DNA of 54,767 nt from an uncultured Desulfobacterales bacterium. Its GTDB lineage: Bacteria; Desulfobacterota; Desulfobacteria; Desulfobacterales; C00003060. Shown here piece by piece: positions 3,577-54,767 of this stretch. The position numbers and the translations under genes were made by a program. The DNA is taken from positions 1 through 54,767 of the forward strand of contig CAYSBQ010000001.1 in assembly GCA_964429315.1 (NCBI GenBank), written 5' to 3'. Each line of letters opens with the position of its first letter. Positions within the stretch are counted from its first letter, which is position 1. Below the pieces are notes generated by a model. It made no database searches. It was not told the origin of the DNA and worked only from the letters and a program-made list of their open reading frames with translations.

Positions 3577-3634
3577 GGCACAAGGCTACCATTTTTCTAA
3601 TCGCGCTTCTAGCGCTGCGTGGTAAGATCGGCGT

Positions 3635-4543: not shown

Positions 4544-4558
4544 TAGAATCGAGCAACC

Positions 4559-10327: not shown

Positions 10328-10338
10328 AGGTATGTCTT

Positions 10339-36463: not shown

Positions 36464-37707
36464 CCAGAAAAAGAAATCTCAAGAACAGGATTCATACGCC
36501 GCCTGATGTTCAGCAGCAGCATGCAGATCACCTGGCCAATATTGCGAACATGCTTTCACAGGAGCAGACCGGCAATCATGGAGTGATGTACCCGAACGGA
36601 AGGCCGAACATCAGTCAGGTGAGGGATCTCGAGCGGGCGATGCAGCAGCCGTTTAACGATCCACGCGTCATGCTGCCCAATCCATCGGCAAGCGCACCTT
36701 TCGATCGCACCGAACCGCTCGACCGTGTTGCAAAGAATGAGGCGTTCGGATTCCAGGTCCAGCCTGATCGGATTATCGATCTACCGCCCGGCGATGCCGG
36801 CGCTGGGCAATCCGTCTATCGTAGAACGCACATCTTCGCGCGTCTCAATGCGTCGACTGCTCCAGATGACCCTGTTGCAGGAAATCCATTCGACAAGGCT
36901 ATCGGAATGGCGACCTACAGGTCGAGCGATTGCCGCCCTCGATTTTGGCATATCTCATTCTTCGGAATCGGTGTTCAGCGAGTCGCTAACAATGTACCGC
37001 TAAGCCCTCTCACAAACAATGAGATCCTCAGTCAGCAACTAGACCCTGTCACCAACAACGTATTGCCTACTGGAAGATTCATTCCTTCAATCTCGCAGAT
37101 GAAGGGGCGAATCATGGTCTTCGATGAGTCGGGGCAGAGGTTCTACGACGTCGACGTTTTAGGTAATCGGAGTCTCGATATCTACGCCTGGGGTGTAACC
37201 GCATTCATTCTTGCGCCTGGAAACAACTATGATGGTCAGCCAGATCAATCCGCCTATGAGGTAAACGCTCAAAATGGAGGAACCCCAATCCCTCAAACAC
37301 AGCTCGAGGGATTGGTTGAAGACTCTTTGATCGGAGTACGCATTGTCCCGATCGTAATTAACAGTACTCAGAATACTGAAAACAGAACGATCACGGTTGT
37401 GACGCCCGGCGGCGCCGATCCAGGGCCAACGAGAGTCCCGATCCCTCCAGGCACCCTGAGGGTTCAGGTTCTATGCCATGACGGAGCGACGGTTGCGGCG
37501 ACATACCGCCTTGAATTCGACGCTGGAGATGACGGCACATTTCTGGGAAGGAGTGATCTTGGTTTGCTCGAGTTCAATACGGGTCAAGCAAGAACTGATC
37601 TAATGCTCGTGCCCAATTGCTCACAGATTATTATAAATCCACCAGTCGCGCCTCCGCTTGTAGGCACTGTTGGATGGTCATTCATCTTTGTCGTGGAGGC
37701 GCAGTAA
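36460..37707 (+). CDS. Capsid-candidate paralogue 3 (415 aa)
   Basis: Shares the same conserved blocks, with a longer N-terminal arm and insertions. ATGA overlap with paralogue 2. N-terminus MTRKRNLKNR. Confidence 0.8.
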   Translation: MTRKRNLKNRIHTPPDVQQQHADHLANIANMLSQEQTGNHGVMYPNGRPNISQVRDLERAMQQPFNDPRVMLPNPSASAPFDRTEPLDRVAKNEAFGFQVQPDRIIDLPPGDAGAGQSVYRRTHIFARLNASTAPDDPVAGNPFDKAIGMATYRSSDCRPRFWHISFFGIGVQRVANNVPLSPLTNNEILSQQLDPVTNNVLPTGRFIPSISQMKGRIMVFDESGQRFYDVDVLGNRSLDIYAWGVTAFILAPGNNYDGQPDQSAYEVNAQNGGTPIPQTQLEGLVEDSLIGVRIVPIVINSTQNTENRTITVVTPGGADPGPTRVPIPPGTLRVQVLCHDGATVAATYRLEFDAGDDGTFLGRSDLGLLEFNTGQARTDLMLVPNCSQIIINPPVAPPLVGTVGWSFIFVVEAQ

Positions 37708-41989: not shown

Positions 41990-42535
41990 ATGACCAGAAG
42001 AAACGGAAGACACGGAACTAGATACAATCGCATGGGGGGACCAGTCAGGGGAGGCGCATCCAGAGGTCTGGCAGCCCCAGCCCCCAATGTCCCGCCTAAT
42101 CTAAGTGGCAATCCTGCGGGCTACAATAAAGTTCGCTTCCCAAGCACCAAAAGTGTTATCTCGGAGCTTCAGGGGCTCGGGTACACGGCGATCTACAATC
42201 CCAAGGCTGCCTTCGTGAGATTTCAGCAGGATTATAATATCGTCCATAAGTATAGCCCCAAGCATGCTCCAGGTACCCTGGTACCCGATGGAGTTCCTGG
42301 GATAAACACTCTGAACGGTATGGACTGGGCGACTCGCATGGTCAAGACCATGCCTAAGAGCTGGATTTACTACGTCAAAAAATTCCGCTCGATGGGAACC
42401 GACAAGCCGAGCAGCCCAGTGCCTCTTTTCCCTAAGCCTAAGCCTAGCGGTCCAACGCGTCCGGGAAAGCCTAAGCCTAAGCCTGGTGCGAGTAAACCGA
42501 TAGGTCGTCGCCGCAGCCGTCGCCGTAGCCGGTGA
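41990..42535 (+). CDS. Basic-leader protein with a PG_binding-like domain and an Arg-rich tail
   Basis: MTRRNGRHGTRYNRMGG, then PPNLSGNPAGYNKVRF...LQGLGY...FQQDYN...VPGINTLNGMDWATRM, then a KPKP-rich tail ending GRRRSRRRSR. Confidence 0.7.
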   Translation: MTRRNGRHGTRYNRMGGPVRGGASRGLAAPAPNVPPNLSGNPAGYNKVRFPSTKSVISELQGLGYTAIYNPKAAFVRFQQDYNIVHKYSPKHAPGTLVPDGVPGINTLNGMDWATRMVKTMPKSWIYYVKKFRSMGTDKPSSPVPLFPKPKPSGPTRPGKPKPKPGASKPIGRRRSRRRSR

Positions 42536-42564: not shown

Positions 42565-43263
42565 ATGACACATCGATTCGGAAGAGCAACAAGAGTTTTT
42601 AATGCCATGGGTCCTGCTGGCGTAGCCGGCATGGAGCTTGCGCCCTCGGCGCGTGCAGAGGCTGAGTCTCATCCGGCCGTCACCTACCAATCTGGATATG
42701 GATCGATGATGGCGTCGGGGGCATCTCCAAATGCTCCCATGAGAGTGGGCGCAATGGAGTACACGATGCCTCCGAATCGGATGCTCGAACCTCATCGACA
42801 AGGTGAGCAGAGTCGAATGCTGTGGCATCAGACTGGGCGTAGATTCGGGAATCCACCACCTGGGTGGATTGGTGCTGGCGGGGTTGCCCAGATCCCCCAC
42901 CCGAATATGGGTATGAGGCCTGCCCCCGACCGCTCCTTTGGTCCCGGTCTAAGCGCAGGCCAAGGCGGCGTCCAGTCATTTCAAGGCGGAGCTGGACCCA
43001 TGGCGGTTCAAACCTACGGAAGCCTAGGGTACGCGAGTATGGGCGACGGGAGCATGGACATGGCCGTGCGTCAGGGTCGTAGATTCTCAAAGGTTTCGGA
43101 TTACGAAAACACGGTTACTTGCAACTGGTGGTGCTCGAAACACCCGGATTCCCAGTACTGCAAGCCGGGCGGTCTATGTACGGATAGCTATTTCCTTCCC
43201 AGCCCGACTAAGCGTCGAATCAGAAGCAAGAGCCCGGCCAGGAAAAGAAGGAGAAAAAGATGA
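42565..43263 (+). CDS. Basic-leader Gly/Met/Pro-rich protein with an Arg-rich tail (232 aa)
   Basis: MTHRFGRATRVFNAMG at the N-terminus, a C-terminal Cys cluster (CNWWCSKHPDSQYCKPGGLC) and the tail KRRIRSKSPARKRRRKR. Confidence 0.65.
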   Translation: MTHRFGRATRVFNAMGPAGVAGMELAPSARAEAESHPAVTYQSGYGSMMASGASPNAPMRVGAMEYTMPPNRMLEPHRQGEQSRMLWHQTGRRFGNPPPGWIGAGGVAQIPHPNMGMRPAPDRSFGPGLSAGQGGVQSFQGGAGPMAVQTYGSLGYASMGDGSMDMAVRQGRRFSKVSDYENTVTCNWWCSKHPDSQYCKPGGLCTDSYFLPSPTKRRIRSKSPARKRRRKR

Positions 43264-43532
43264 CCATCAAAAAAGGTAGATTAGGGAGAAAGTTCAATCG
43301 CGCAGCCATGGCTGACCCCAGGGGCAGCTGGGCTGCGGGCGTACCAGCAAGCGCTGGATTCTATCCCGAGCAAGGTGTCCGATTCTCCGGTACGATAGAT
43401 CCGCTGTCGTGCCCCGCCGCCCCTGCGTGCAGCTCGACTGACGAGAGTGGCGGATCTACTACGGAGCGTCGATACGCGAGAACATCCCTCAAGCCAAAGC
43501 GCCGCGGATTACGACGCCGCAGCCGTAGGTAA
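43260..43532 (+). CDS. Small basic-leader protein with an Arg-rich tail (90 aa)
   Basis: MTIKKGRLGRKFNRAAM ... RRYARTSLKPKRRGLRRRSRR. ATGA overlap and AAGGAGA SD. Confidence 0.65.
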   Translation: MTIKKGRLGRKFNRAAMADPRGSWAAGVPASAGFYPEQGVRFSGTIDPLSCPAAPACSSTDESGGSTTERRYARTSLKPKRRGLRRRSRR

Positions 43533-43535
43533 TCA

Positions 43536-43922
43536 ATGGCCAAGACAGATCTAAGACCCGCCGCCCTCGCCGCCGGCATCTTCGTCATCGGCGGAGTCGT
43601 GCTTTTTTCGAGAAAGAAAAGAAAGGCATGCCTTGAGCTTCCTGACATCTGGTCAGAAGAAGGTCCAATGCACATGACGCAAGGGTCTCAAGATGAGGCT
43701 ATTGAGTTGACCCGATACAAGATTAGGGAGTACGTTCTTTCTGCGAAGTCGTACACTCGCTCCGATATCGTGATGGCTGTCGCCGATGGGCTAAGAGAAT
43801 GCAAGTGGGAGAATCTCGAGACCGACCAACAAAAACAAGTGTGGGAAGGCATCGAACAGATCGTAAAAAGCGAGATTCAGGCGTATAATCAGAGTCCAGA
43901 TGCCTGGATGGCATCCTTCTGA
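43536..43922 (+). CDS. GG-helix/basic N-terminal module protein (128 aa)
   Basis: MAKTDLRPAALAAGIFVIGGVVLFSRKKRK. Starts 3 nt after the previous stop. Confidence 0.7.
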   Translation: MAKTDLRPAALAAGIFVIGGVVLFSRKKRKACLELPDIWSEEGPMHMTQGSQDEAIELTRYKIREYVLSAKSYTRSDIVMAVADGLRECKWENLETDQQKQVWEGIEQIVKSEIQAYNQSPDAWMASF

Positions 43923-43936
43923 TTCGGGAATAGATA

Positions 43937-44728
43937 ATGGCTATACAGCAGGGAAAAGTTCTAATCCTAGCGGGCGCGGGAGCCCTGCTGTTCATTTCAG
44001 CTGGGAAAAAGAAGAAGCGGAAAAAAACTTCTTCGAGTGCGGCTCCTGAACCTGCAGAGGATATGGATAGCACCGAAGGCCCCGCGTTTGAACCGGACGA
44101 AGTAGCGGGCGAGGCGGACGGCGCTGAGCCTGAGGCTCCACCCAAAATCGAGACAGCCATCAGCAAGTACATGTCCCCCGACGGCAAGGCGCAACTCGGC
44201 GCGTTTTACCAGATACGCCCTGGTGACACGCCGCTCGAGATTTGCCGCGAAGCTTTATTTGGATCGAGAGAGCCGGTTACGAGCCAGGTCATGCGGCAGG
44301 CTGCCAAAGACCTTCTTGTCAGAATCGACTGCGGCCCCTGGAACCAAGCTGTATATGGAGTATCTCTGAGCAAGCTGACCCCTGGTCACGCTGCAATCGA
44401 TGAGTACTGGACGCAGCAAGGCGTCTCTTTGTACCCGGTTTATTCGGACAATTCCGATCGAATGTCAAAGGGACTCTCTGCGAGCGGGGCGAGCGGAGAG
44501 AGCTTTGCTTTGATTTGGATTCCAATGATCAACCTCGATAAGTTCGACATGGAAGGTATTGTGTCGACAGAAGGTATGTATCACCCTGACACTCCGAATG
44601 GACTAGGCGGGAGCATGATCGATCCACCCCTAGAAATTCTGAGCCTCGGATTCGATGATGTGTCCGAAAAGACAGTCGGATGCGACCTGCCAGAGGGCGA
44701 CTTCAGAAGAAATCTGATCGCTAACTGA
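43937..44728 (+). CDS. GG-helix/poly-Lys module protein (263 aa), possible LysM-like segment
   Basis: MAIQQGKVLILAGAGALLFISAGKKKKRKK. FYQIRPGDTPLEICREAL loosely resembles the LysM start (Y.V..GDTL..IA), but this is a weak match. Confidence 0.7.
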   Translation: MAIQQGKVLILAGAGALLFISAGKKKKRKKTSSSAAPEPAEDMDSTEGPAFEPDEVAGEADGAEPEAPPKIETAISKYMSPDGKAQLGAFYQIRPGDTPLEICREALFGSREPVTSQVMRQAAKDLLVRIDCGPWNQAVYGVSLSKLTPGHAAIDEYWTQQGVSLYPVYSDNSDRMSKGLSASGASGESFALIWIPMINLDKFDMEGIVSTEGMYHPDTPNGLGGSMIDPPLEILSLGFDDVSEKTVGCDLPEGDFRRNLIAN

Positions 44729-44847
44729 TGGCTAAAAGATGCCGCCCTTCGCGCTGCAACTCACATCGTACAATACCAGTCCCCGACCCCCAATCTCCCC
44801 TCTCTTCTAACCGTCGCAACGCACAAGAAAACGGCACTTCCTAAGCG

Positions 44848-44876
44848 TTGAATCATGCCTTGCAAAATGGTAAAGT
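44848..44876 (+). promoter_or_regulatory. Candidate sigma70-type promoter in the 169-nt gap inside the late block
   Basis: TTGAAT (44848-44853), a 17-nt spacer, then TAAAGT (44871-44876), 21 nt upstream of the ATG at 44898. Confidence 0.4.
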
Positions 44877-44897
44877 TTAAGGCGGAAGAAGAACCCT

Positions 44898-45383
44898 ATG
44901 TCAAAGAAGAAGTACGATACAAGCGAACCAATTCTCGTCATTGTTAGGCGCGGTCGAAAGGGTCGTGGATTCACGGTCGCCCCAGTGGAGGACGCGTCGA
45001 ATCCGGCAATGTGCGGGACAATTGAAGAGCTTGGCGAAGTGCTTGAGGAAATGCTGAACGATGAGTATCAGTCCCGAGTGGACCTCGCCGCAATGTTGTC
45101 AGCCGGAATGGAAGGCTCAGAATCCCCAAGAGGCCGAGCGCCCGAAGAGGGTGAGCCAGAATACGACGATGGCGATGAGGATGAGGACGAAGACGAGGCT
45201 GAAGGCGGCGAAGAAGACGGCGGACTATTCGAAGGCGTCGCAGGCGCTGCAGATCCAGCAGACCAGCTCCTCATCAATGTATTTTCCTGGGCCGCGAAAA
45301 AAGGCCAATCAATGAGCAGCAAGCCTCGCGCTCCACGAGCCCGAACCAGAAGGCGACGCCCTTCTGGTAAAAAGAGATCATAA
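44898..45383 (+). CDS. Acidic-core protein with an Arg-rich tail (161 aa), no hydrophobic module
   Basis: EGEPEYDDGDEDEDEDEAEGGEEDGG in the centre and PRAPRARTRRRRPSGKKRS at the C-terminus. Confidence 0.65.
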   Translation: MSKKKYDTSEPILVIVRRGRKGRGFTVAPVEDASNPAMCGTIEELGEVLEEMLNDEYQSRVDLAAMLSAGMEGSESPRGRAPEEGEPEYDDGDEDEDEDEAEGGEEDGGLFEGVAGAADPADQLLINVFSWAAKKGQSMSSKPRAPRARTRRRRPSGKKRS

Positions 45384-46103
45384 ATGGACCCCGTCACCCT
45401 TGCAGTCCTCGCCCTAGGCAGCGCCTTTCTCCTCAAAGGGAAGAAAGGTCGCGGCAGTAGGTCCGCGCCCAGCGGCAGTAGGTCCGCGCCCAGCGGCGGA
45501 TGGGGTGTAAAGGGTGACGAAGACCGCCTTCACTGGCTCAATGAGATTCGCTCAATGTCTCACTGGTACACCCAAAAATTTGGGTCAATGCCATACCTAG
45601 CCGACTACCTCACGGTCGTTGGCTATATCGAAGCGAACTTCAACCCGGCCTCGCGGAATCCGGAATACAAAACCAACCCCGCGAACGCGGCTAGAGGGCT
45701 CGGCGGAATGCGTCCTGATACGGCGTTCAAAGAAAAATACGGGACCGAGTTCATGGCCCCATACCCGGACGCCCTCCTGAATCCTCGATGGGCTTTCGTC
45801 ATGGCGGTCCATCACATCTGGTACGCTTGTGCTCGCGTCGATGAGCTGCAGACTGGAGTGATTGATTGGGCTGCAGTAAGACGTTGGTGGGGGAGGCCCA
45901 CCACTGTCCACGATTTCAATTTCGACAATCCGTATTCATCCGGAAACCTCGAGCGATTCGTGGATAAATTGCACGAGTGCAATAAGAATTACGGCACCAA
46001 TATCGATCCAGATTTCGTATGGGAGAAGGTTTCCGGATGGCGAAATTATCCTGGTATAGAAGTGATGATTGAGTCATTCGGTCTCAAAGGCGTTTACGCA
46101 TAG
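45384..46103 (+). CDS. Membrane-anchored lytic transglycosylase (SLT-like) candidate
   Basis: MDPVTLAVLALGSAFLLKGKKGRG, then GYIEANFNP (catalytic Glu context, where E-S-x-F-N-P is expected) and ANAARGLGGMRP (where GA.GLMQ is expected), followed by PYPDALLNP. Confidence 0.55.
   Translation: MDPVTLAVLALGSAFLLKGKKGRGSRSAPSGSRSAPSGGWGVKGDEDRLHWLNEIRSMSHWYTQKFGSMPYLADYLTVVGYIEANFNPASRNPEYKTNPANAARGLGGMRPDTAFKEKYGTEFMAPYPDALLNPRWAFVMAVHHIWYACARVDELQTGVIDWAAVRRWWGRPTTVHDFNFDNPYSSGNLERFVDKLHECNKNYGTNIDPDFVWEKVSGWRNYPGIEVMIESFGLKGVYA
45453..45494 (+). repeat. Perfect in-frame 21-nt tandem duplication
   Basis: GGCAGTAGGTCCGCGCCCAGC at 45453-45473 is repeated at 45474-45494. Encodes GSRSAPS GSRSAPS just after the membrane module. 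Confidence 0.9.
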
Positions 46104-46109
46104 GTAAAT

Positions 46110-46805
46110 ATGGCAGCTCCAGCAATCCCCCTATTGGCCGCGGCAGGAGCCGCTCTTCTTCTTTCCGGTGGCAAGAAAAAGAAGAAGAGCGGCCCGAGGA
46201 CTGGCCAGAAATGTGATGACTCCCTGAGTCCGCCTAGTGGATTCACCTGCGACGATGGGTTGCTGAAAGAGGAATCGATCGAAGAAGGGGATCTAGATAG
46301 CGATGCAGATCTCTCCAAGGAGGATTCCGGGGACTTCGAAACGTACCAAGAGGATGTCGGGCTTTCTGATGGTGAGGAGCACGGCGATCTAGAAGAGCCG
46401 GAAGACCCCGCGCCTGACCCGGTGAAGACTTGCGAGGAGTTCATGAGCGCAGTCCATGTGGACTCGACGGATGACGGCGAGTTACCCATCAACGCTGTAG
46501 CTGTCGAGGAGTCGGTGCTGCCGGCAATGAGGGCGAACGCGGCGAGCATTGCTGAGTCAATTGGGACTCCGCTCGACCACGAGTCGGTAAGTCCAGTATT
46601 GGTTGTCACGGGTCTCAAGTCCCTCATTCCAGTGTGCGAATGGAAGTACGACGTGGACGACGGATTCACCTATAACAACGGAACCGCAATAATTTCGGAT
46701 GAGGCGAAGGACGTCATATACGGACTTATCGAGTTGTCCGTAAGCGTGATCGACGAGATCAACAACCCCGTGACTAACACCGCAACACTGCAGCCGGAAG
46801 GATAG
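46110..46805 (+). CDS. GG-helix/poly-Lys module protein with an acidic ectodomain (231 aa)
   Basis: MAAPAIPLLAAAGAALLLSGGKKKKKSG, followed by an Asp/Glu-rich region. Confidence 0.75.
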   Translation: MAAPAIPLLAAAGAALLLSGGKKKKKSGPRTGQKCDDSLSPPSGFTCDDGLLKEESIEEGDLDSDADLSKEDSGDFETYQEDVGLSDGEEHGDLEEPEDPAPDPVKTCEEFMSAVHVDSTDDGELPINAVAVEESVLPAMRANAASIAESIGTPLDHESVSPVLVVTGLKSLIPVCEWKYDVDDGFTYNNGTAIISDEAKDVIYGLIELSVSVIDEINNPVTNTATLQPEG

Positions 46806-46808
46806 AAT

Positions 46809-46994
46809 ATGGCGAAAAAGAAAAAAGAGGACGACGATGCGTTCAACAAAATTTTGTGGGTTGCCGGGGCCGCTGGCGTGACAGCGTTTGCCATGTTCTA
46901 CGTGAACAAGCATCTCAACGAAAAGGAAGAGCTTAATCGATTGCGGAGCAATGGGCACCAGCCTCAGCTTAGCGGTGGGGACGGCGAAGAATGA
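46809..46994 (+). CDS. Small membrane protein, basic cluster before the helix (61 aa)
   Basis: MAKKKKEDDDAFNKILWVAGAAGVTAFAMFYV. The order of the poly-Lys and the hydrophobic helix is inverted relative to its neighbours. Confidence 0.6.
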   Translation: MAKKKKEDDDAFNKILWVAGAAGVTAFAMFYVNKHLNEKEELNRLRSNGHQPQLSGGDGEE

Positions 46995-47503
46995 AAGATC
47001 TGGCAGAAATGGAGGTATGGGGGCTTGAGCAGTTCTCCCAGCAATGGGAGCGCTCGTTAGATCTACGCGACATCTTGTCGAAGCTTCCTGGCCAACTGGT
47101 TTTGAAATCAGGACTATCCGCTCGGCGGAATAAGCTTGTTGAGGGGTGGGACCAGCTCGAGTCCCCCGGCCTTGACGGCATCGTGTCTAATGAGTCCGCG
47201 ATCGCTCTGAAGAGATGGATCCATGAGGCGGAGATCTTCATCGCTCACATCATTCAAATCGGAAAGCAAGACAAACAGCAAGCGTTCGGCCGCGCGTTTG
47301 CAGGGACAGATGATGTCATTCAGTTCGAAACAGTCGAATCTATTGGCGAAGTTAATTTCGTTTCAGACGAATGGTCCTTTCCGTGGGCGGTAAAACGACA
47401 GTCGAATCGAGCGAAGAGCTTCGATAAAGAAAAGCTCTTTAAATACGGAACGCTCGGCGCCCTCGGCCTTATCGCTGTCGTCACATACATGGACGAGGAA
47501 TAA
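46991..47503 (+). CDS. Tail-anchored protein (170 aa)
   Basis: ATGA overlap with the previous gene. The only hydrophobic helix is C-terminal (YGTLGALGLIAVVTYM-DEE). Confidence 0.65.
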   Translation: MKDLAEMEVWGLEQFSQQWERSLDLRDILSKLPGQLVLKSGLSARRNKLVEGWDQLESPGLDGIVSNESAIALKRWIHEAEIFIAHIIQIGKQDKQQAFGRAFAGTDDVIQFETVESIGEVNFVSDEWSFPWAVKRQSNRAKSFDKEKLFKYGTLGALGLIAVVTYMDEE

Positions 47504-47505
47504 CG

Positions 47506-47949
47506 ATGAGCTTCCTACCAATACTCGTATTAGGCGGCGCCTATGTCGTTCTCTCCGGAAGGAAAAAGAGGAAGAGACGACCTAGCGGTGCAAAGGCGCT
47601 AACAGCCTCGGGTCGAGGCGAAGTCTTCAATGGGGGTGATCCTCCAGACGTCATCACCAACGCCGTTGGGATAAGATTCTCCGTTTCGTTCCCCGAAATA
47701 GCTGGCACGGGGTATGGATGGAAACTCTCCGCATCTCCGCCAGACAACTCCGTCACCCTAGTAAGCACAGAGTTTGACTCGATACCAAGCGACGACGGCA
47801 TCGTTGGCGGGCATTCGGGGAACCGAGTCTTCGTTTTCGAAGGCGCGAAAAAAGGCTCAGGCTCGCTGGTGTTCCACCTTCAGGCCCCATGGAAAGATGG
47901 GAAAGAGCCACCGGCAGAAATAGTCGAGATTCAAACGGAAATCTCGTAG
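47506..47949 (+). CDS. Membrane-anchored chagasin-like (I42-type) cysteine-protease inhibitor candidate
   Basis: MSFLPILVLGGAYVVLSGRKKRKRR, then AGTGYGW (where NPTTGY.W is expected), about 33 aa later VGGHSG (for G.GG), and about 27 aa later QAPW (for RPW). The order and spacing match the three chagasin loops in a ~110-aa beta domain. Confidence 0.55.
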   Translation: MSFLPILVLGGAYVVLSGRKKRKRRPSGAKALTASGRGEVFNGGDPPDVITNAVGIRFSVSFPEIAGTGYGWKLSASPPDNSVTLVSTEFDSIPSDDGIVGGHSGNRVFVFEGAKKGSGSLVFHLQAPWKDGKEPPAEIVEIQTEIS

Positions 47950-47967
47950 AATACACAAGGCAGAACC

Positions 47968-48546
47968 ATGGCAAACAAAGTACTACCACTACTCGTAGCC
48001 GGCGGAGCCGCGCTTCTTTTCCTTCCCAAAAAGAAGAAGACGGAGAGCACCTCTGGAAAAAAATCGAACGGAGAAGTCGGGGGCGATTCAAATGGAGATA
48101 TCTCCAAGACCGGAACGCTTTTCGGATGGAATTATCGAGTACGAAAGGCGAAGACCGTAGAAGGCTTCTCCGTTCAATACTTCGGTGAGGTTCAAGCACC
48201 AGATTCCAAGACTTGGGTGAAGGCTCATCAAGACGCTCGAACCGATCCAGAAGCCGCCCGATTCCTCGCTATGGAAGCGATCGCCACCCGCGTCGCAGCC
48301 GCCGACACGCCAGAGGACAATCTTGTGTTCAACTCCGGTTCGATGTCCGACTGGAACTGGAGAGTTATGCGAACCGTACCAATGGAAGGGTTCGGTGTCG
48401 CATACTTCGGAGAGATGCAGGCTCCCGATTCGCAACAATGGACTCGAGTCCATAATGACGCCCGGGTTGATCCCGAAGCCGCTCGCCTGCTCGCCCTAGA
48501 GGCGATCGCAATGAAGCTCGAAGAACTGGCTAACGCCGGCAACTAG
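47968..48546 (+). CDS. GG-helix/poly-Lys module protein with an internally duplicated ~65-aa domain
   Basis: MANKVLPLLVAGGAALLFLPKKKKT. The repeats are WNYRVRKAKTVEGFSVQYFGEVQAPDSKTWVKAHQDARTDPEAARFLAMEAIA and WNWRVMRTVPMEGFGVAYFGEMQAPDSQQWTRVHNDARVDPEAARLLALEAIA. Confidence 0.75.
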   Translation: MANKVLPLLVAGGAALLFLPKKKKTESTSGKKSNGEVGGDSNGDISKTGTLFGWNYRVRKAKTVEGFSVQYFGEVQAPDSKTWVKAHQDARTDPEAARFLAMEAIATRVAAADTPEDNLVFNSGSMSDWNWRVMRTVPMEGFGVAYFGEMQAPDSQQWTRVHNDARVDPEAARLLALEAIAMKLEELANAGN

Positions 48547-48562
48547 CCGGCCAGCCCACTTG

Positions 48563-49714
48563 ATGGGAGTACCGGTGGCCAGCGAAAACCTCCAGACGAT
48601 CATCGTCTCAAAAGAGATTGCGAGAACGCGCCTAGCTGCAGAAAAGCTGGCGCGTCCTTACGCGCGCGGTCCTCTTTATCCGACCGAAAAAAAGTCGAGC
48701 TGGCGCTTTCTGCAAAAGCCGCCGAGCGACTTTGTCCGCAATTCTTTTCGGGCCGTACCCATTCCTACCCAGGAGGGGATCGTCCTCGTCTATGGCAAGC
48801 TCAAGAGGCAGAGCAACCCCTCGGACCAGCGCTGGCTCCAATTCAGAGATGGAGACAGACGCGAGACGGTGATGGCCGAGTGGGACTTCTGGATGACCTG
48901 GAGGCCGAATGTAGCCAAGGCTAAGGATGCGGATGGGCTCCGAAAGCTCATCGCCTCTGCCGACAAGAGGGAGGTTCGAAGCGTGTTGGTGCGAGGTTTA
49001 ATCGATCAGGACATTGCTGAAAGAGCAAGGGTTTTGAAGATTACCAGGATGCCGAAATCTGTTGAGGCGGACGAGAGGATAGTAGATCTCCTGAGGCGCG
49101 GCAGAATGGGTAATCCAGGTCAGCCCCCGAAGGTCAACAAAGGCAGCTCACCGAAATCGGCTAAGAAAAAAGCCAGAACGAGGACTACTAAGCACATCGT
49201 TCTTCGCTCTCCTAAAACCATGCCAGATCCAGGGCCATGCTCATGGCTTGGGTCGATGGTCGAATGGGCATGGGTGATGCCAAGAGGGGAAACGGCTAAG
49301 AAAATCGACGAGGATGGCAATGCGCTTTGGACACCTAACTCCGAATGGATGTTCATGTGGGCCCCTAAGTACAAGGCAGTTGTATCGATCAGAAAGCCTC
49401 GGAACATGTACAGGCTTGCCAAGGTTTCTAGGCATGGTGGCGCGGCAAAAATGTTCGAAACATTCATGGCTCGCCCGGCTGAAAATTCATTCGAGATTAG
49501 CGTCCCTGACATTCCTATCCATCACGTTGGCCAAAAGGCTGCAGCGATTGTGTATAGGTCTGATAAGTGGTCGCCGAAGAGGCTCGAATCTGACTACATT
49601 CACAAGTTCGGGAAGGGCGTGCAACTTTACTGCGGTCCAAGCATTGAGCATCCCGACGTTTTCATTTGCTTCGGTGGCAAGCTTACGCTGACAAAGCGCG
49701 GGCTCGTCTGGTAG
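48563..49714 (+). CDS. Hypothetical soluble basic protein (383 aa)
   Basis: The track start 48560 is a TTG, so the adjacent ATG 48563 is used. No hydrophobic module. Basic patch NPGQPPKVNKGSSPKSAKKKARTRTTKH. No family recognised. Confidence 0.65.
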   Translation: MGVPVASENLQTIIVSKEIARTRLAAEKLARPYARGPLYPTEKKSSWRFLQKPPSDFVRNSFRAVPIPTQEGIVLVYGKLKRQSNPSDQRWLQFRDGDRRETVMAEWDFWMTWRPNVAKAKDADGLRKLIASADKREVRSVLVRGLIDQDIAERARVLKITRMPKSVEADERIVDLLRRGRMGNPGQPPKVNKGSSPKSAKKKARTRTTKHIVLRSPKTMPDPGPCSWLGSMVEWAWVMPRGETAKKIDEDGNALWTPNSEWMFMWAPKYKAVVSIRKPRNMYRLAKVSRHGGAAKMFETFMARPAENSFEISVPDIPIHHVGQKAAAIVYRSDKWSPKRLESDYIHKFGKGVQLYCGPSIEHPDVFICFGGKLTLTKRGLVW

Positions 49715-49729
49715 AATCAGGATATCGTT

Positions 49730-50404
49730 ATGGCCAGAAAGAAACACTGCAGGAATCGTCTAGTCGTCCATGCAGAGAACCGTTTGTATTCGCCTCGTTA
49801 CGACTGGGAGGGCGCCGATGGATTGGCGCAAACCAGTTTTGAATTCATCGACGCTGACGCAATGTGTTTTTGGGGTGTATGTGACAGCGATAGCTACAAC
49901 GCGTGGGTGAAGGCGACCGAGAAGTACATCAACGGCGAGCTTGTCCCTCATTACAAGAAGGTGCTTGCACGGGCGAATGCTCAGGCTGCTGGTGCTCCGC
50001 TGAAGACTGAGCTTCAGGATAAATTCAATAAGATCAAAGCGTTTATCCAGAAGTGGGATGACGCCGGATACGAGCCGAACAAGGATTGGACGGATACTCT
50101 TTCTCATCCCTTTGCCACGTATTGGTGGGGTGAAATTCGAAGCATCATCGAGTACTTCGACGAAGCTGCCTGTTACTTCGACACTCTCGACGTGATCGCC
50201 GCAGACGACCTGCTGTCACCAGCCCTTGCAAAGGGTGCTCCCAAGCGCACGCTCGAGCCGTCGCCGACCGGCAGTTATTTGGATGGGTCGGGCGGCCCAA
50301 GCGGCGGCGGTGGCGGTGGCAGCTCGAGCTTTGCGACCAAGGCGGTTGGCATTATGGCCATTGGTGCTGCCGGATATTTCGGATTCAAGGTTCTTACGGA
50401 GTAA
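49730..50404 (+). CDS. Tail-anchored protein (224 aa)
   Basis: Soluble N-terminal domain, a Gly-rich linker (GGPSGGGGGGSSS), then the C-terminal helix AVGIMAIGAAGYFGFKVL. Confidence 0.65.
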   Translation: MARKKHCRNRLVVHAENRLYSPRYDWEGADGLAQTSFEFIDADAMCFWGVCDSDSYNAWVKATEKYINGELVPHYKKVLARANAQAAGAPLKTELQDKFNKIKAFIQKWDDAGYEPNKDWTDTLSHPFATYWWGEIRSIIEYFDEAACYFDTLDVIAADDLLSPALAKGAPKRTLEPSPTGSYLDGSGGPSGGGGGGSSSFATKAVGIMAIGAAGYFGFKVLTE

Positions 50405-50407
50405 AGA

Positions 50408-51157
50408 ATGCCTAAAAAATCATCTGCACTCCCACTCGTAGCTGGCGGCGCTGCCCTGCTCATGATTTCTTCTGGGAAGAAGAAAAAGAAGAAGGCATCT
50501 GGCCATCGTTCTCGTTGGGGAGTTTTGGTCAGCAAGGATTGCAACTCGGTAGAGGTTGTCGACTCTGTCATGTTCCAGAGGTTTACCTACGGGGCATACG
50601 ACGAGCTTGTGTCGATCGATCCAAGTCTCTCCTTGATTCAAATCACCGATGCTCTTTTCGGTGAGGTGGCCCCCGAGTGTTCCGGATTCCCCGAGGAGCC
50701 AGAGAGCGCGGAGGTCGCTGAGCTTTACGCCGTGATTGCACGTGGTGTGGCTTCTTATCTTGCGACCGATCCACGAACGAAGGATTCCATGGGGAGCCTC
50801 GTAGACGAGGCTACGCAGATCTCCTTCATCGACTGGTATCGCGGATGGAGAAACTATCCATCCGCTGACCTTCCGAACGGGCCGTCAGGACAAGTTGTTT
50901 TCTCAAGCGATATGTCCAACTATAAAATCGGCGACAGCTGGTTCGAGGATATCGTTCGTCCATTCGTTCAGCATGAACAAAATGAGGGCCGTCTCGAGTT
51001 CGCATTTGAAGACTTTGTGAACGAGCTGGGCGTGAAGGTCGGGCAATTTGCGATGCCTATCAAAGAGCTTCCGCAGGACGCTCCGACCGTTCAGGATTTC
51101 ATGAACAAGCTAGAGCAGGCCATCGATATGGCCACAGCCGAAGTATTCAAGGGATGA
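50408..51157 (+). CDS. GG-helix/poly-Lys module protein (249 aa)
   Basis: MPKKSSALPLVAGGAALLMISSGKKKKKKASG. ACGGAG SD. Confidence 0.75.
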   Translation: MPKKSSALPLVAGGAALLMISSGKKKKKKASGHRSRWGVLVSKDCNSVEVVDSVMFQRFTYGAYDELVSIDPSLSLIQITDALFGEVAPECSGFPEEPESAEVAELYAVIARGVASYLATDPRTKDSMGSLVDEATQISFIDWYRGWRNYPSADLPNGPSGQVVFSSDMSNYKIGDSWFEDIVRPFVQHEQNEGRLEFAFEDFVNELGVKVGQFAMPIKELPQDAPTVQDFMNKLEQAIDMATAEVFKG

Positions 51158-51579
51158 ACAAGGACGACATCGTACCGTTCGCCCTTTTGGGCGCAGGCCT
51201 ATTCCTTTTGGGAAAGGCTGCCAAAAAAGGTCCAAGAAAACTCAAGGACCGAACGGGGGAGGCGTGTGATCCAAAAGATAACGCTCCATATGGGTACGAG
51301 TGCGGACAAGTCGTCGGCGGATGGGAGCTGATGGAGGAGAAAGGTAAATTCCTCGGGTTCGGTCCATATAACAATCGAGACGGTGTCGATACGGCTCTCT
51401 CGAGACTTGGATTTTCCGGCGGGAACCTAAAGGGGTTCCAGATGTATATGTCTTTGATCTCCGAGTGGGATTTACGTAAAGATGGCCAGCTCGACAGCGA
51501 AACGATCGTGGCTCTAGAAGAAGCCGAAGGCCTACTGAACAGGGACGAGTGGGTTCCGCCAAGGGGTAATCAGCCATGA
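51154..51579 (+). CDS. GG-helix/basic module protein with a PG_binding-like segment (141 aa)
   Basis: MNKDDIVPFALLGAGLFLLGKAAKKGPRK, then ALSRLGFSGGNLKGFQMYMSLISEWDLRKDGQLDSETIVALEEA. ATGA overlap. Confidence 0.7.
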   Translation: MNKDDIVPFALLGAGLFLLGKAAKKGPRKLKDRTGEACDPKDNAPYGYECGQVVGGWELMEEKGKFLGFGPYNNRDGVDTALSRLGFSGGNLKGFQMYMSLISEWDLRKDGQLDSETIVALEEAEGLLNRDEWVPPRGNQP

Positions 51580-52100
51580 GCGAAGATGAATCCAACGCGC
51601 CAAACTCTTCAGAAGGAATGCTCCTCGAGCCCGAGAAGAAGACCCTTGGCTCATGGCTGCTCCCCGCTGCTCTCGCTGCAGGTGGCGCAGCTCTGGTCTA
51701 CAGGGCTGCGAAGAAGGGCGACAAGAAATCGAAGCCTTCGGCCTCTGCCCCCGCCGCTAGCGCTAGCGAGGTCGCGTTCTCTGCGAACCACAGTAGCTAC
51801 TCAATGGGAAAAGATTACGAGCAGCTTGTGCTCGAGCCGTATCTCGCAGAGCAGGCTGAAGATGGGAACCTGCATTTAAAGGGGCAGGGCTCTGGATTCG
51901 TCGGGTCCATTCCTATGGTCGAGAATCTAATGCTCGACCATACGCGCAAGACGGTCATTTCCGCATTCAAATCTACTCACAAGGTGAAGGTGGGCAAGGA
52001 GTTTGTACAGATCTCCGCCCTCCCTCAAGGCAAGACAGGCGTTCAGAAGTTCAACGACTGGATTGAAGAGAAAACAAAAAGTTTCCAGGAGAACTACTGA
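51576..52100 (+). CDS. GG-helix/basic module protein with a longer N-terminal extension (174 aa)
   Basis: ...KKTLGSWLLPAALAAGGAALVYRAAKKGDKKSK. ATGA overlap. Confidence 0.7.
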   Translation: MSEDESNAPNSSEGMLLEPEKKTLGSWLLPAALAAGGAALVYRAAKKGDKKSKPSASAPAASASEVAFSANHSSYSMGKDYEQLVLEPYLAEQAEDGNLHLKGQGSGFVGSIPMVENLMLDHTRKTVISAFKSTHKVKVGKEFVQISALPQGKTGVQKFNDWIEEKTKSFQENY

Positions 52101-52996
52101 TGGCATTCAATCTACTACCACTCCTCCTCATCGGCGGCGCAGCTGCCTACGTCGTCACTTCCGACAAGAAAAAGAAAGAGGAGGAGAAAGAGTGCCCGCC
52201 TACGACGACTGTATCCCTTGGCGAGCTTAGCTCCGTGAGCACTCGGGCTACGGAGAAGTTCGGTCATAATGAAGACCCTTCCAAGGAGGCTTCATTTCTC
52301 GTGAACGAGCTTTTGCCGAATGGCTGCTCGCGTGCGAGCAAGGATTCGACTTTCAAGATCAGCATTCCCGAGGCGGATAAATCATGGGAGCTTTCGATAC
52401 CTGACGCGTACATGCTCTTGTTCGCAAGCGGCATCAGCGTACGGGTACATGCGTCCAAGCTGACCGAGCCTCAGGCCAAGAAGCTATGGACCCGAGAGCT
52501 TGATTGGTACAAGAAGCTTACCGGTAAGAACTTCGACCCATCGGAGTCCGCCATGGAACTCGCCAAGCTGGTAGGCGAGGCTCTATTCGGCAAGGTGGGC
52601 GGTGGAAATACTTCGGAGGATCTAATCCCCGAGGATTCCTGTCCGGGAACTCTCATATACGATATTGACGAAGCTGAACTTATCAAGCTCACGGAGGCCG
52701 AGGCTCGAGGCAGGCAGCTAAGCCCGAACGACCCATTCAAGATCGCTGACGTCGTATTCGCAGCGGTTGCTCCGCCCACCTGCACGAAAAAGGATTTTGG
52801 TACGATCGTGACGATGAGCATATCGATCGGAGGCGGGCCCCAGGTGTCCAGGTCGACAGACTTGGCGGCCCTCTACGCGATGTTCGTCATTGACGCCGCC
52901 AAGTCCATCAACCTTGGGCCCGCTCAAATGGCTGCCGTGGAGAGCAAGGTGGCCTCAAACTACAAGAAGCTCACCGGAAAAGATCTCACGCTGTAG
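52100..52996 (+). CDS. GG-helix/poly-Lys module protein (298 aa)
   Basis: MAFNLLPLLLIGGAAAYVVTSDKKKKEEEKE. 1-nt TGATG overlap. Confidence 0.75.
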   Translation: MAFNLLPLLLIGGAAAYVVTSDKKKKEEEKECPPTTTVSLGELSSVSTRATEKFGHNEDPSKEASFLVNELLPNGCSRASKDSTFKISIPEADKSWELSIPDAYMLLFASGISVRVHASKLTEPQAKKLWTRELDWYKKLTGKNFDPSESAMELAKLVGEALFGKVGGGNTSEDLIPEDSCPGTLIYDIDEAELIKLTEAEARGRQLSPNDPFKIADVVFAAVAPPTCTKKDFGTIVTMSISIGGGPQVSRSTDLAALYAMFVIDAAKSINLGPAQMAAVESKVASNYKKLTGKDLTL

Positions 52997-53005
52997 GAGT
53001 CCAAA

Positions 53006-53473
53006 ATGGCAAAAAGCGCAGCACCACTACTACTTCTCGGCGGAGCCGCCTTGTTGCTTGTGAGCAGCAAGAAGAAAAAGAAATCGTCGAACAACGTATG
53101 CACGATCGCTCGTTCATACGAAGAGTTCAAAGCGATTCTCGACAGTAACGAGCGCGTCGAATACCCTGTTTCGTTTATCTTTTACCCGGATGGCGAAGAG
53201 GCTCGAGGTGAGCAACTTTGCAAGACCCTCGCTCCGCAAGGAATCCGCACGCTTGTTGTCAGCGCCGCGAACGAGGCCAAGTGGGCCTATGAGATGTTGG
53301 ATTCTGGAATGCTCCAACCAGGCAGTGCGCTGCCTGGGGTAGATGAGATGAAGAAAAAGGCTGAGGGTGTATGGATCGTTTACAGCGCCAGCGACACTCA
53401 AACCGGGATACCCTGGGACTCGATACCGTGGGATAACACAAAATCGATTCTCAGCATTCTGAAGGGGCTATAA
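53006..53473 (+). CDS. GG-helix/poly-Lys module protein (155 aa)
   Basis: MAKSAAPLLLLGGAALLLVSSKKKKKSS. TAGGAG SD. Confidence 0.75.
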   Translation: MAKSAAPLLLLGGAALLLVSSKKKKKSSNNVCTIARSYEEFKAILDSNERVEYPVSFIFYPDGEEARGEQLCKTLAPQGIRTLVVSAANEAKWAYEMLDSGMLQPGSALPGVDEMKKKAEGVWIVYSASDTQTGIPWDSIPWDNTKSILSILKGL

Positions 53474-53479
53474 TCCGTC

Positions 53480-54013
53480 ATGGCAAAAAGCGCAGCACCA
53501 CTACTAATTCTCGGCGGAGCCGCCTTGTTGCTTATGAGCAGCAAGAAGAAAAAGAGCAGCGGCAGCGGAACTCTTCCAGAATTTCCATATGGGACATTCG
53601 ATCCGAGCGCAGACGATCCCGTTTACGGCGGTGAAACTCCGGCACCGTCTAGCGGTGGGGCAGAAGCCGATACTGCGAAATGGACGGCCATCCAAAAAGG
53701 ATTGAAGATCCTCGGATACACCGAGGTTGGCCAGCCCACCGGAAAGCCCAATGCGGCGACCTATACAGCCATCAAGTTGTTCCAGAAGGATTGGAACACA
53801 ATGATCGGGTACATGACCAGCATCGACTCGCCAGCTGTCGGAAAAACGGTGTACACCACGACTGTCGAAGATGGCGCATGGGGCCCTGCGACCAAGTATC
53901 GATATGATAAGGCTATGAATGCGTTTGGGAACCCACCGTTTGAGGTGGAGGGCCTGCTCATGTCACTCAACAGCTTTCGCGATATGGCCGCAGAACTCAA
54001 AAAGAAATTCTAA
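53480..54013 (+). CDS. GG-helix/poly-Lys module protein with a PG_binding-like domain (177 aa)
   Basis: MAKSAAPLLILGGAALLLMSSKKKKSS, then IQKGLKILGYTEVGQPTGKPNAATYTAIKLFQKDWN...EDGAWGPATKYRYDKAMN. Confidence 0.75.
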   Translation: MAKSAAPLLILGGAALLLMSSKKKKSSGSGTLPEFPYGTFDPSADDPVYGGETPAPSSGGAEADTAKWTAIQKGLKILGYTEVGQPTGKPNAATYTAIKLFQKDWNTMIGYMTSIDSPAVGKTVYTTTVEDGAWGPATKYRYDKAMNAFGNPPFEVEGLLMSLNSFRDMAAELKKKF

Positions 54014-54016
54014 GTC

Positions 54017-54682
54017 ATGTTATTACCACTTCCACTCATTCTCTTTGGCGGCGGTGCCGTTCTCCTTCTAAGCGGAAAGAAGAGTAGATCTACTAGACCT
54101 ACCGTACCAAGCGGCGCAGGTGGAGGCGGAAGCTCAAGCTCAAGTGATGGCTCTGACAAGACTCCAGACGGCTACGGGTCAGAAGATGAATCCATCATTG
54201 GCGGCTCAAGCGACGACTCAAAAGCTCCTTTACGAGCTGACGGCGAGCCATGGCCATCGACGACCGGAGTCCATGACTCGTCATATCCAGAGCCCATGTG
54301 GTCACCAGTGCATGGTGAGTTGCCACAAGATTCAGGATTGTGGTGGTGGAAGCAGACGAAGCTTTACGTCCTTGGCTACAACCGTGGATTAGAGGACGGC
54401 GGTATCGACGGCATCCCTGGGGGTACGACCACCAAGGCAATAGCCTCATTCCAGTCTGAATGGAATTTTTTCGTGGATTATCTTAACAAGATCAACCCTT
54501 CTATTGTATACAAAGATCCGTACACGAAGATTTCCTCTGATGGTTACTGGGGTCACAATACGGACTTGCGAGTCAATAAGGCTCTCAGTAAGTTCAATGG
54601 AACCGATCCAATCTATGTCGAGGAGATAGGGAAAAGCGTCCCTACATTCCACGATATGATTGTCGAAATACAGAAGCTCTAA
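54017..54682 (+). CDS. GG-helix/basic module protein with a PG_binding-like domain (221 aa)
   Basis: MLLPLPLILFGGGAVLLLSGKKSRS, then LYVLGYNRGLEDGGIDGIPGGTTTKAIASFQSEWN...SSDGYWGHNTDLRVNKAL. Confidence 0.75.
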   Translation: MLLPLPLILFGGGAVLLLSGKKSRSTRPTVPSGAGGGGSSSSSDGSDKTPDGYGSEDESIIGGSSDDSKAPLRADGEPWPSTTGVHDSSYPEPMWSPVHGELPQDSGLWWWKQTKLYVLGYNRGLEDGGIDGIPGGTTTKAIASFQSEWNFFVDYLNKINPSIVYKDPYTKISSDGYWGHNTDLRVNKALSKFNGTDPIYVEEIGKSVPTFHDMIVEIQKL

Positions 54683-54712
54683 CCATCAGAGCCTAATCAA
54701 ACGGAACAACAG

Positions 54713-54767
54713 ATGGCATCTCCACTCCCACTTTTGATCGTTGGCGGCGCACTTCTTCTCATCAGCG
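54713..54767 (+). CDS. Start of a further GG-helix module protein (partial, runs off the window)
   Basis: The ATG at 54713 begins MASPLPLLIVGGALLLIS, which reaches the window edge. Confidence 0.6.
   Translation, partial: MASPLPLLIVGGALLLIS

Follow-up and report, generated by a model that had tools for sequence, protein, structure and literature searches.

Sixteen plus-strand genes in the 54,767-nucleotide stretch that makes up the whole of contig CAYSBQ010000001.1 (assembly GCA_964429315.1, an uncultured Desulfobacterales bacterium), which was analysed as a whole and is referred to below as the window, begin with one and the same N-terminal module; 15 of them are complete and the last is truncated by the window end. 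The module consists of an uncharged helix of 15-21 residues, rich in Leu, Ala and Gly, and then 3-7 Lys or Arg residues (window-level consensus ALPLLLAGGAALLL(S/G)G-KKKKK). To judge from its sequence, it is a genuine common N-terminal membrane-anchoring element. We consider it rather probable that it acts as a reverse signal anchor of stereotyped sequence, one that fixes the internal-membrane proteins of the virion in a new group of large phages related to PRD1. Genes and their products are designated by gene coordinate.

Anatomy of the module

The open reading frames (ORFs) and N-termini listed in a preliminary description of this DNA, made from the sequence without database searches, are all present where it placed them. 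Its statement that the helix always has a central GG/AG pair holds only loosely, since 3635 reads GAAALG and 45384 reads LGS. The module was defined by a strict rule: an uncharged stretch of 13-26 residues that starts no more than 12 residues from the Met and is composed of at least 70% L/I/V/F/M/A/G/W/C, followed by six residues with at least three K/R and no D/E. The rule is passed by 12 of the 73 called genes of the window, 11 of them from the set listed previously, versus none of 159 other ORFs. The twelfth, 16542 on the minus strand, has an Ile/Phe/Tyr helix that is not stereotyped. Five listed copies fail, namely 3635 (a sparse basic run, KSSKTSK), 45384 (KGKKGRG), 52100 (an Asp ahead of KKKK), 51576 (an acidic leader of 22 residues) and 54713 (which ends at the window edge ahead of any basic run). 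By eye and by orthology, these are clearly the same module. When 36 related loci are added to the window, the rule is passed by 139 of 459 called genes versus 13 of 983 other ORFs. Chance resemblance and mis-called ORFs are ruled out by these controls together with the conservation described below.

Alignment of 123 unique copies from the window and the related loci, anchored at the first basic residue, gives the consensus M-A-(K/N/S)-x-A-L-P-L-L-L-(A/L)-G-G-A-A-L-L-L-(S/L/G)-G | K-K-K-K-K-(K/R)-S. Its positional features are a Pro near the start of the helix, a central run of small residues and a Gly at -1. The uncharged stretch measures 14-21 residues in the relatives, mostly 15-19. The N-tail that precedes it has 0-10 residues and a net charge of mostly 0 or +1 in the window and relatives, the leader of 51576 being longer; for the 16 window copies the extremes are 0-22 residues and -4 to +2. 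One or two Lys precede the helix in several copies (MAK, MANK, MPKK). The ten residues after the helix hold 3-7 K/R in the window copies and 4-8 in the 123-copy alignment. Kyte-Doolittle averages over 17 residues lie between 1.5 and 2.35, the usual threshold being 1.6. The Lys run is often followed by a linker of Ser, Gly, Pro or acidic residues and then by a globular domain, here called the cargo.

Conservation and distribution

The helix is conserved position by position, beyond its composition. Among 28 cargo families, each represented by one member, cross-family helix identity is 0.297, versus 0.185 +/- 0.005 after shuffling within the helix. Within orthologous families the helix is at least as conserved as the cargo (identities of 0.48-0.75 versus 0.26-0.67). 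Identical residues among the window copies use the same codon in just 44% of cases and, on this evidence, the similarity is maintained at the protein level. The preliminary description had also held that the proteins are otherwise unrelated to one another. This is not so for two pairs of paralogues, 53480/54017 and 50408/51576. With the first 35 residues removed, BLAST sorts the cargos of the window and its relatives into at least 28 families without detectable similarity.

The exception at the DNA level is the pair 53006/53480. The two genes have in common a block of 74 nt, about 94% identical, that extends exactly from the ATG to the Lys run (window positions 53006-53090 and 53480-53564), while both flanks and the cargos are unrelated outside it. 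It follows that the module is able to spread, or to be made uniform, in the manner of a cassette, and the block points to cassette transfer or gene conversion. Slippery poly-A tracts within the Lys runs were considered and rejected, as the run of this pair (the only one displayed) has A-runs of about 5 nt and AAG/AAA usage is like that of the genome.

These features could be taken to mean that there is no dedicated signal at all, and that ordinary anchors have come to look alike through tandem duplication and gene conversion. The 74-nt cassette, adjacent paralogues with identical modules in the related contig L003, and the arrangement of the genes in tandem arrays are as this explanation would have it. 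However, all other pairs differ at synonymous sites, and the motif is found on at least 28 dissimilar cargo families and across genomes whose orthologues are only 45% identical. Moreover, the other N-terminal anchors of the same genome (9860, 14713 and 16542) have non-stereotyped helices. We regard this explanation as very unlikely.

The module follows the element into its relatives, where orthologues with a conserved module span 45-97% identity. The family of 45384 numbers 56 homologues, and nearly all full-length ones retain the helix and GGK(K/R), down to 45% identity. In two syntenic relatives, L002 (a 145-kb scaffold) and L003 (a 216-kb contig), 9-10 genes carry the module by the strict rule and at least 12-14 by eye; in L009, a relaxed rule finds it on at least 16 of 27 genes.

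Elsewhere the module is rare and specific to the N-terminus. A scan with an N-terminal profile, which the preliminary description had proposed as a check, was made with 32 positions derived from 13 window copies against 1.84 billion representative proteins (E<=1e-3). It yielded 42 matches, 40 of which begin at residues 2-5. The ten matches whose clusters were looked up come from metagenome sources only and belong mostly to singleton clusters. A tblastn search of a phage collection with the module consensus gave no match, but the low-complexity filter may have blocked this query.

Class of signal and predicted topology

A Sec signal has a basic n-region and an h-region of 7-15 residues; its c-region is polar, residues -3 and -1 are small, and the mature protein begins with neutral or acidic residues. 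In the module, the helix resembles an h-region and residue -1 is small (Gly in 64% of copies, Ser in 15%, Thr in 8%), but residue -3 is Leu, Met or Phe in about 71%, the polar c-region is absent, and K/R occur at positions +1 to +6 with frequencies of 81%, 89%, 89%, 79%, 70% and 52%. A cleavable Sec signal peptide is ruled out on these three counts, and the earlier remark that the module is unlike a Sec signal is confirmed by sequence criteria.

Other known signals fare no better. Tat signals carry a twin-arginine motif, S/T-R-R-x-F-L-K, ahead of the h-region, and the 16 window copies have no RR ahead of the helix. The lipobox of lipoproteins, L-(A/S)-(G/A)-C, places a Cys at +1; this position is K/R in 97% of the copies, and Cys is met only from about +5 on, in 9%. 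Signal-arrest-release (SAR) domains are weakly hydrophobic transmembrane helices on lysis enzymes, with an N-in/C-out orientation and basic residues before the helix. They resemble the module in being Gly/Ala-rich N-terminal helices on phage wall hydrolases. In the module, however, the basic run comes after the helix, so that the charge bias is reversed, and the endolysin of this genome (10339-11403, minus strand; Amidase_2 plus PG_binding_1) lacks the module. A SAR endolysin signal is thus rejected.

The LPXTG/sortase, PEP-CTERM/exosortase and GlyGly-CTERM/rhombosortase signals are C-terminal, have a cleavage motif before the helix and are served by a dedicated enzyme, and their cargo ends up outside the cell. 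Like the module, they put a helix and a basic cluster on many unrelated cargos of one genome. The description of the module as their mirror image is mistaken, since they too run from helix to basic cluster in the N-to-C direction. The differences lie elsewhere: the cargo of the module is predicted to stay on the cytoplasmic face, and the module itself is N-terminal in all window copies and in 40 of the 42 global matches, which excludes a C-terminal sorting signal. No signature sorting motif was seen by eye in the module copies, and none of the 50 window proteins scanned gave a Pfam match to sortase, exosortase or rhombosortase.

A simpler and better match among known classes is the reverse signal anchor, an uncleaved N-terminal transmembrane helix with a short N-tail that lacks excess positive charge and with a positive cluster on its C-flank. 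In hydrophobicity, in N-tail charge and in the basic C-flank, the module has the sequence characteristics of this class (N-out, C-in). Given the charge asymmetry, 0 to +2 before the helix versus +4 to +8 after it, the positive-inside rule predicts an uncleaved reverse signal anchor, and we infer an N-out, C-in topology. The only copy with a long N-tail, 51576, has an acidic one (net -4), as in YidC-type N-tail translocation.

The neighbouring genes reported earlier as encoding membrane proteins, the tail-anchored 46991 and 49730 and the small transmembrane protein 46809, are real. For the two tail-anchored proteins, the short tail alone must cross the membrane. With the predicted topology of the module, all large domains of the block can thus be placed on one membrane face without Sec-dependent translocation.

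A reading that dispenses with a stable membrane role takes the module for a cleavable propeptide, which would target the cargo into the capsid and be cut off before the Lys run, as in T4 capsid targeting or in processing of the adenovirus type. The stereotyped N-terminus across unrelated cargos and the cassette behaviour would suit it, and so would the Gly found at -1 in 64% of copies, some of which read L-x-G-G|K. However, the hydrophobicity of the helix is at the transmembrane level, and the tail-anchored and other transmembrane proteins that co-occur with the module fit a membrane. The residues ahead of the Lys run, (S/G/L)-(G/S/T), form no strict protease motif; positions -2/-1 vary (S/G/L/A, then G/S/T), and the adenovirus-type site (L/M/I)xGG|x, tried as a candidate, fits a minority of copies. 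Pfam-type scans of the window proteins found no protease in the window. We hold a propeptide to be highly improbable.

The element that carries the module

The module genes form one co-directional block directly after three tandem paralogues (34638-37707, plus strand; 249, 359 and 415 residues), which constitute the largest family found, with 90 homologues. AlphaFold2 models of the 415- and 359-residue proteins (pLDDT 74 and 77) each show two runs of about eight beta-strands. In Foldseek searches of the PDB, PRD1/PR772 P3 makes up 26 of the top 28 matches of the 415-residue model, and the 359-residue model matches capsid proteins of STIV, PRD1, vaccinia virus (VACV; D13), PBCV-1, phiCjT23, HHIV-2 and an iridovirus. 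The E values of these capsid matches are 1e-5 to 1e-6, and the probabilities reach 1.0. A fold search of BFVD was noisy but included a tectivirus capsid protein. On the strength of these models, the two larger paralogues are probable double-jelly-roll (DJR) capsid proteins. The preliminary description had suggested a virion internal membrane as one destination of the module, and this suggestion receives independent support from the modelling of the upstream paralogues as DJR capsid proteins of the type found in PRD1 and its lineage, whose virions have an internal membrane.

In PRD1 and PM2, as here, the genes for the capsid come first and are followed by small membrane-protein genes, a transglycosylase gene being among them here and in PRD1. 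The same order is found in relatives on contigs of 117-221 kb (L002, L003, L022 and L039, the last of 221,287 bp). Replication genes in the window encode RecT, an AAA ATPase, a SNF2-type helicase and a Prim-Pol/D5 primase-helicase. On the minus strand, 15009-15710 encodes a homologue of Tad6, an inhibitor of type I Thoeris (E 6e-34), and 5695-6186 and 6213-6755 give weak Macro-domain and DprA-like matches; from these similarities, the minus-strand block seems to serve anti-defence and DNA processing. Tad6, RecT and the amidase endolysin mark the element as a bacterial virus. These three, together with TnpB in L003 and the overlapping co-directional genes, rule out a eukaryotic host of the kind infected by nucleocytoplasmic large DNA viruses.

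The large PRD1-like phages of which this virus appears to be a member form a clade not described so far. Neither megablast of 25 kb nor tblastn of the capsid-like protein matched any INPHARED phage, and scans of IMG/VR with three queries found nothing. Scans of the GTDB representative genomes with the SLT family and the capsid-like family were likewise empty; none of these genomes, then, carries the element as a prophage. Large prokaryotic DJR viruses go unmentioned in reviews of jumbo phages (PMC13282480) and of viral gigantism (PMC13598248).

Cargo domains and paired cysteines

Pfam assigns window cargos to Peptidase_M23 (3635), the chagasin-type inhibitors I42 (47506) and PG_binding_1 (53480, with 54017 just below threshold). 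The family of 45384 has an invariant Glu within IE(S/A)xFNP, and 12 of its 29 members match SLT (PF01464). In L003, module cargos include a thioredoxin, DUF333 and further PG_binding_1 domains. Among the 40 proteins considered from the global search, the cargo is PG_binding_1 in eight, PG_binding_3 in three, and Glutaredoxin and DUF333 in one each. The remaining cargos belong to no family detectable with Pfam, PHROGs or PDB sequence searches of selected proteins. The PHROGs search, with 20 proteins, gave no usable match, and the PDB searches (38191, 36460, 48563, 52100 and the SLT profile) gave none or matches at chance level.

The cysteines of these proteins tend to come in even numbers. Per protein, 74 module proteins have an even (non-zero) count and 12 an odd one, versus 104 and 110 for the rest; per family, the figures are 13 even and one odd, versus 49 and 48 (Fisher p=0.002). 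Such parity characterises proteins that contain disulfide bonds and function in an oxidising compartment.

Cargos of this kind could mean that the module is an unusual export signal, or a type II (N-in, C-out) or SAR-like anchor, and that the proteins are sent to the host periplasm and are not virion components. There they might serve in remodelling or attack of the wall, in superinfection exclusion or in helping lysis. The M23, SLT, PG-binding, chagasin, DUF333 and thioredoxin domains are of periplasmic type, and the even cysteine counts suggest disulfides. The Gly/Ala-rich, marginally hydrophobic helix resembles signal peptides and SAR domains, about 89% of the copies have a small residue (G, S, T or A) at -1, and one or two Lys stand ahead of the helix in several. 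The flanking charges argue otherwise, as 4-8 Lys/Arg directly after the helix face an N-tail of 0 to +2. By the positive-inside rule, and because basic residues early in the mature part block export, such a cluster should prevent translocation of the C-terminal side. A polar c-region is missing, and L, M or F predominate at -3. The gene context argues in the same direction: the module genes, all in one orientation, form a block immediately downstream of the capsid genes, and the lysis cassette has an endolysin without the module. With a separate endolysin of this kind, the module-bearing hydrolases are not the lysis enzyme. Export to the periplasm is, in our judgement, unlikely.

A model for the role of the module

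The model that we favour starts from the virion of the DJR lineage, which would enclose a lipid membrane derived from the host cytoplasmic membrane. The short, moderately hydrophobic helix would insert into that membrane so that a few N-terminal residues reach the far side, while the poly-Lys run, in keeping with the positive-inside rule, would hold the remainder of the protein on the cytoplasmic (cis) face. The run would probably also bind anionic lipid head groups, and DNA if it faces inward. All globular domains would then lie on one face of the virion membrane, and the 16-20 or so module proteins per genome would, with their tail-anchored neighbours, make up the virion internal-membrane proteome. 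Assembly would follow the route of PRD1, in which the membrane proteins insert into the host cytoplasmic membrane and a phage-specific patch is then pinched off as the internal vesicle (PMC6356626).

The particle would carry the cargos, which are wall-active and presumably disulfide-bonded, and these would act at entry into the next host. This timing is proposed because many cargos act on or bind peptidoglycan or typify oxidising compartments, and because of their paired cysteines. They might reach the peptidoglycan along the exterior of a membrane tube like that of PRD1; alternatively, a PM2-like fusion of the virion membrane with the outer membrane might leave them exposed on the periplasmic face. 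We infer, then, that the module proteins are present in virions, with their cargo on a given face of the virion membrane, and that any sequence-specific co-sorting would go through the conserved P...GG...G helix. The position-specific conservation of this helix suggests helix-helix recognition or sorting by hydrophobic mismatch.

The same topology would hold if the proteins, anchored N-out, C-in, were retained in the host membrane or in an intracellular viral compartment and left unpackaged, as an assembly or replication platform or for membrane remodelling. The many proteins without an assigned function would not be out of place there, and PRD1 offers a precedent in its non-structural protein P10, which marks the membrane patch (PMC6356626). 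On the cytoplasmic face, however, peptidoglycan hydrolases, PG-binding domains and a protease inhibitor would have no obvious substrate, and the paired cysteines point to an oxidising destination. The genes lie beside those for the capsid, and the virion membrane proteins of PRD1 and PM2 offer a parallel; both points speak for packaging. We give little credence to retention.

Several observations weigh against the packaging of a reverse-anchored membrane proteome in a PRD1-like virion. Simple sums on the Hessa scale are mostly positive (-0.4 to +4.6 kcal/mol), and the helix is therefore only marginally hydrophobic. The cargo domains are periplasmic in type, which taken alone would suggest export and not retention on the cytoplasmic face. 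A metagenomic protein of 696 residues, P0212, has two tandem internal copies of the helix with KKK, at residues ~560-610; they follow a large N-terminal domain and are a poor fit to a purely N-terminal anchor. The capsid-like models are of moderate confidence (pTM 0.46-0.56) and their TM-scores are just 0.2-0.25, for which reason the DJR assignment is probable and not proven. Finally, no packaging ATPase of the FtsK/A32 type is found in the window, where the AAA protein at 21073-23367 is alone in having a Walker A motif; the window covers just part of a larger genome.

A more ambitious proposal goes beyond anchoring. It takes the P-L-L-x-x-G-G-A-A-L-L-L-x-G helix with its Lys run as a true sorting signal encoded by the virus. 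A partner dedicated to this signal, for instance an insertase, an intramembrane protease or a membrane protein that serves as scaffold, would recognise it, and at least 20 enzymes with disulfide bonds and a periplasmic site of action would in this way be loaded onto the internal membrane. The phages concerned would form a previously unrecognised clade of very large PRD1-like viruses (contigs to 221 kb). We consider this possible but doubtful.

Comparison with known systems

The closest parallels are in PRD1. The membrane proteins P11 (...WWIVAAIGGLAAFLLL-KNR-GGGSGGGG...) and P16 (...LLYWVGGGLVLILIWLWF-RNR...) have the same plan as the module proteins: the N-terminal transmembrane helix contains a central GG and leads, through basic residues and a Gly-rich linker, to a domain. 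Like the module block, the genes for both follow the DJR capsid gene. P7 is a transglycosylase tethered to the virion membrane, like the cargo of 45384, but its anchor is C-terminal. There is no sequence homology between the PRD1 and module proteins, however. In PRD1, the basic cluster comprises just two residues, Lys also occurs before the helix, and the helices are not stereotyped. The 15-kb genome of PRD1 encodes about 10 membrane proteins, compared with at least 16-20 that carry one module here, where the contigs range from 55 to 221 kb.

Reverse (type III, N-exo/C-cyto) anchors occur in TatA, in the major coat proteins of Pf3 and M13, and in eukaryotic microsomal cytochrome P450. They have in common with the module an uncleaved helix, a short or acidic N-tail, a cytoplasmic basic cluster and the fact that few residues cross the membrane; in the M13 and Pf3 coats, the Lys cluster also contacts DNA in the virion. 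Their anchors are individual sequences, whereas the module is one motif on dozens of unrelated cargos. The Pf3 and M13 coats carry no cargo domain, and the Lys run of the module is unusually long and uniform.

A further analogy, not a homology, is provided by the poxviruses. Their mature-virion and entry-fusion proteins have an N-terminal transmembrane tether and disulfide-bonded domains that face the cytoplasm, and a thioredoxin-like viral protein is involved. The even cysteine numbers of the cargos and the module-bearing thioredoxin and glutaredoxin in the relatives recall this arrangement. However, poxviruses infect eukaryotes, and no Erv1-type oxidase was found here.

N-terminal anchors on virion membrane proteins are already known as a kind of element. 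What is new is one stereotyped, cassette-like module on at least 28 unrelated cargos and on about 30% of the called genes (the 139 of 459 given above), its global rarity, the even-cysteine, wall-directed cargo set and the host element itself. If the model is true, the module makes it possible to list all internal-membrane proteins of an uncultured virus directly from its genome sequence, and its 25 residues become a candidate tag for directing foreign proteins into a phage membrane. It would also pose a testable question of sorting, namely how viral rather than host proteins are concentrated in the future virion-membrane patch, and it would reveal a clade of large PRD1-like phages missed by current viral databases and detection pipelines. 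If there were in addition a dedicated signal, this would be a viral counterpart of the sortase/exosortase cargo systems, in the first 'jumbo' DJR phages.

Gene organization in the window

Two module genes lie far from the main block. The M23 protein (3635-4543, plus; PF01551, E 6.4e-10) has a weak variant, with the helix FLLGAAALGIVAAAGSS (nt 3647-3697) followed by KSSKTSK. Beside it, the acidic, Asp/Glu-rich protein at 4559-5026 (plus) has the canonical form MK-SALPLLVAGGAALLLMGG-KKKK and no Pfam match. Further along, on the minus strand, a putative lysis cassette (9860-11403) joins the endolysin to a protein of 155 residues with an N-terminal transmembrane helix.

The main block, all on the plus strand, lies downstream of the capsid-like paralogues. 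It opens with a protein of 128 residues (43536-43922), whose helix PAALAAGIFVIGGVVLFS is followed by RKKRK and whose module is present in 17 of 17 family members. The next (43937-44728, 263 residues) has the helix, KKKKRKK, an acidic and Pro-containing linker and a domain without assigned function. After the SLT-like lytic transglycosylase (45384-46103) comes a protein of 231 residues (46110-46805) with a KKKKK run, four Cys and an acidic central region. The small transmembrane protein (46809-46994, 61 residues) has an N-terminal KKKK and a central transmembrane helix, and is a conserved neighbour (family 8, 14 members). It overlaps the first tail-anchored protein (46991-47503), in which the C-terminal transmembrane helix TLGALGLIAVVTY is followed by MDEE. 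The chagasin-family inhibitor (47506-47949; PF09394, E 3e-13) has an orthologue in L002 also annotated as I42, and the product of 47968-48546 has, to go by its sequence, an internally duplicated domain.

The second tail-anchored protein (49730-50404; C-terminal transmembrane helix AVGIMAIGAAGYFGF, then KVLTE) precedes a module protein of 249 residues with a KKKKKK run and two Cys (50408-51157). The protein of 141 residues at 51154-51579 has a weaker basic run, KAAKKGPRK. In the paralogue of 50408 (51576-52100), the helix begins at residue 23, after the acidic leader. The protein at 52100-52996 (298 residues) shows the helix, then DKKKK, and has four Cys. It is followed by the two genes that have the 74-nt block in common, one for a protein of 155 residues (53006-53473) and one for the PG_binding_1 protein (53480-54013; PF01471, E 1.4e-5). 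The paralogue of the latter (54017-54682, family 1) is PG_binding_1-like, with a Pfam E of 3e-4, just under the curated cut-off. At 54713-54767, the window closes within one more module gene, of which it holds the beginning, MASPLPLLIVGGALLLIS. A scan of the window for promoters and terminators was uninformative.

Other observations

In L003 (216 kb), TnpB-like genes (OrfB_IS605 plus Cas12f1-like_TNB) lie inside the structural block, at 3504-4658 and from 20600 onward. One relative contig, of 221,287 bp (ERZ26692762), is named ctg83676_72.07x_c, a suffix that may mean circular; GCA_973514425.1 CCXVIB010000008.1 and the 145-kb BAEC19-1 scaffold_67 are further related sequences. The sole lead to a host comes from P0104 and P0154, homologues of 36460 and 35384, which NCBI lists as 'MAG: hypothetical protein ACYTBS_17850/17855 [Planctomycetota bacterium]'; this may be a binning artefact.

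Between the capsid-like genes and the module block, 38191-40050 (plus) encodes a protein of 619 residues with 27-30 Cys in repeated CC...C...C units, a basic N-terminus and 39 homologues. Searches of Pfam, PHROGs and the PDB gave it no match, apart from weak, chance-level hits to small subunits associated with hydroxylamine oxidoreductase.

A second N-terminal motif is found on consecutive structural genes of different families, in the form of Arg/Gly-rich arms that resemble MT(R/H/W/I)(R/K)xGRxG(R/K). The genes concerned start at 35384, 36460, 40050, 41486, 41990, 42565 and 43260 (plus), and the arms are also conserved in L002, L003, L009 and L012 (MTHRYGR..., MTRRNGRYGRRFNR...). From their composition, they may contact DNA or membrane. 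Several proteins (41990-42535, 42565-43263, 43260-43532, 44898-45383 and, on the minus strand, 3-1559) end in protamine-like, Arg/Lys-rich C-termini with a net charge of +10 to +12 in the last 20 residues, and such tails may condense DNA.

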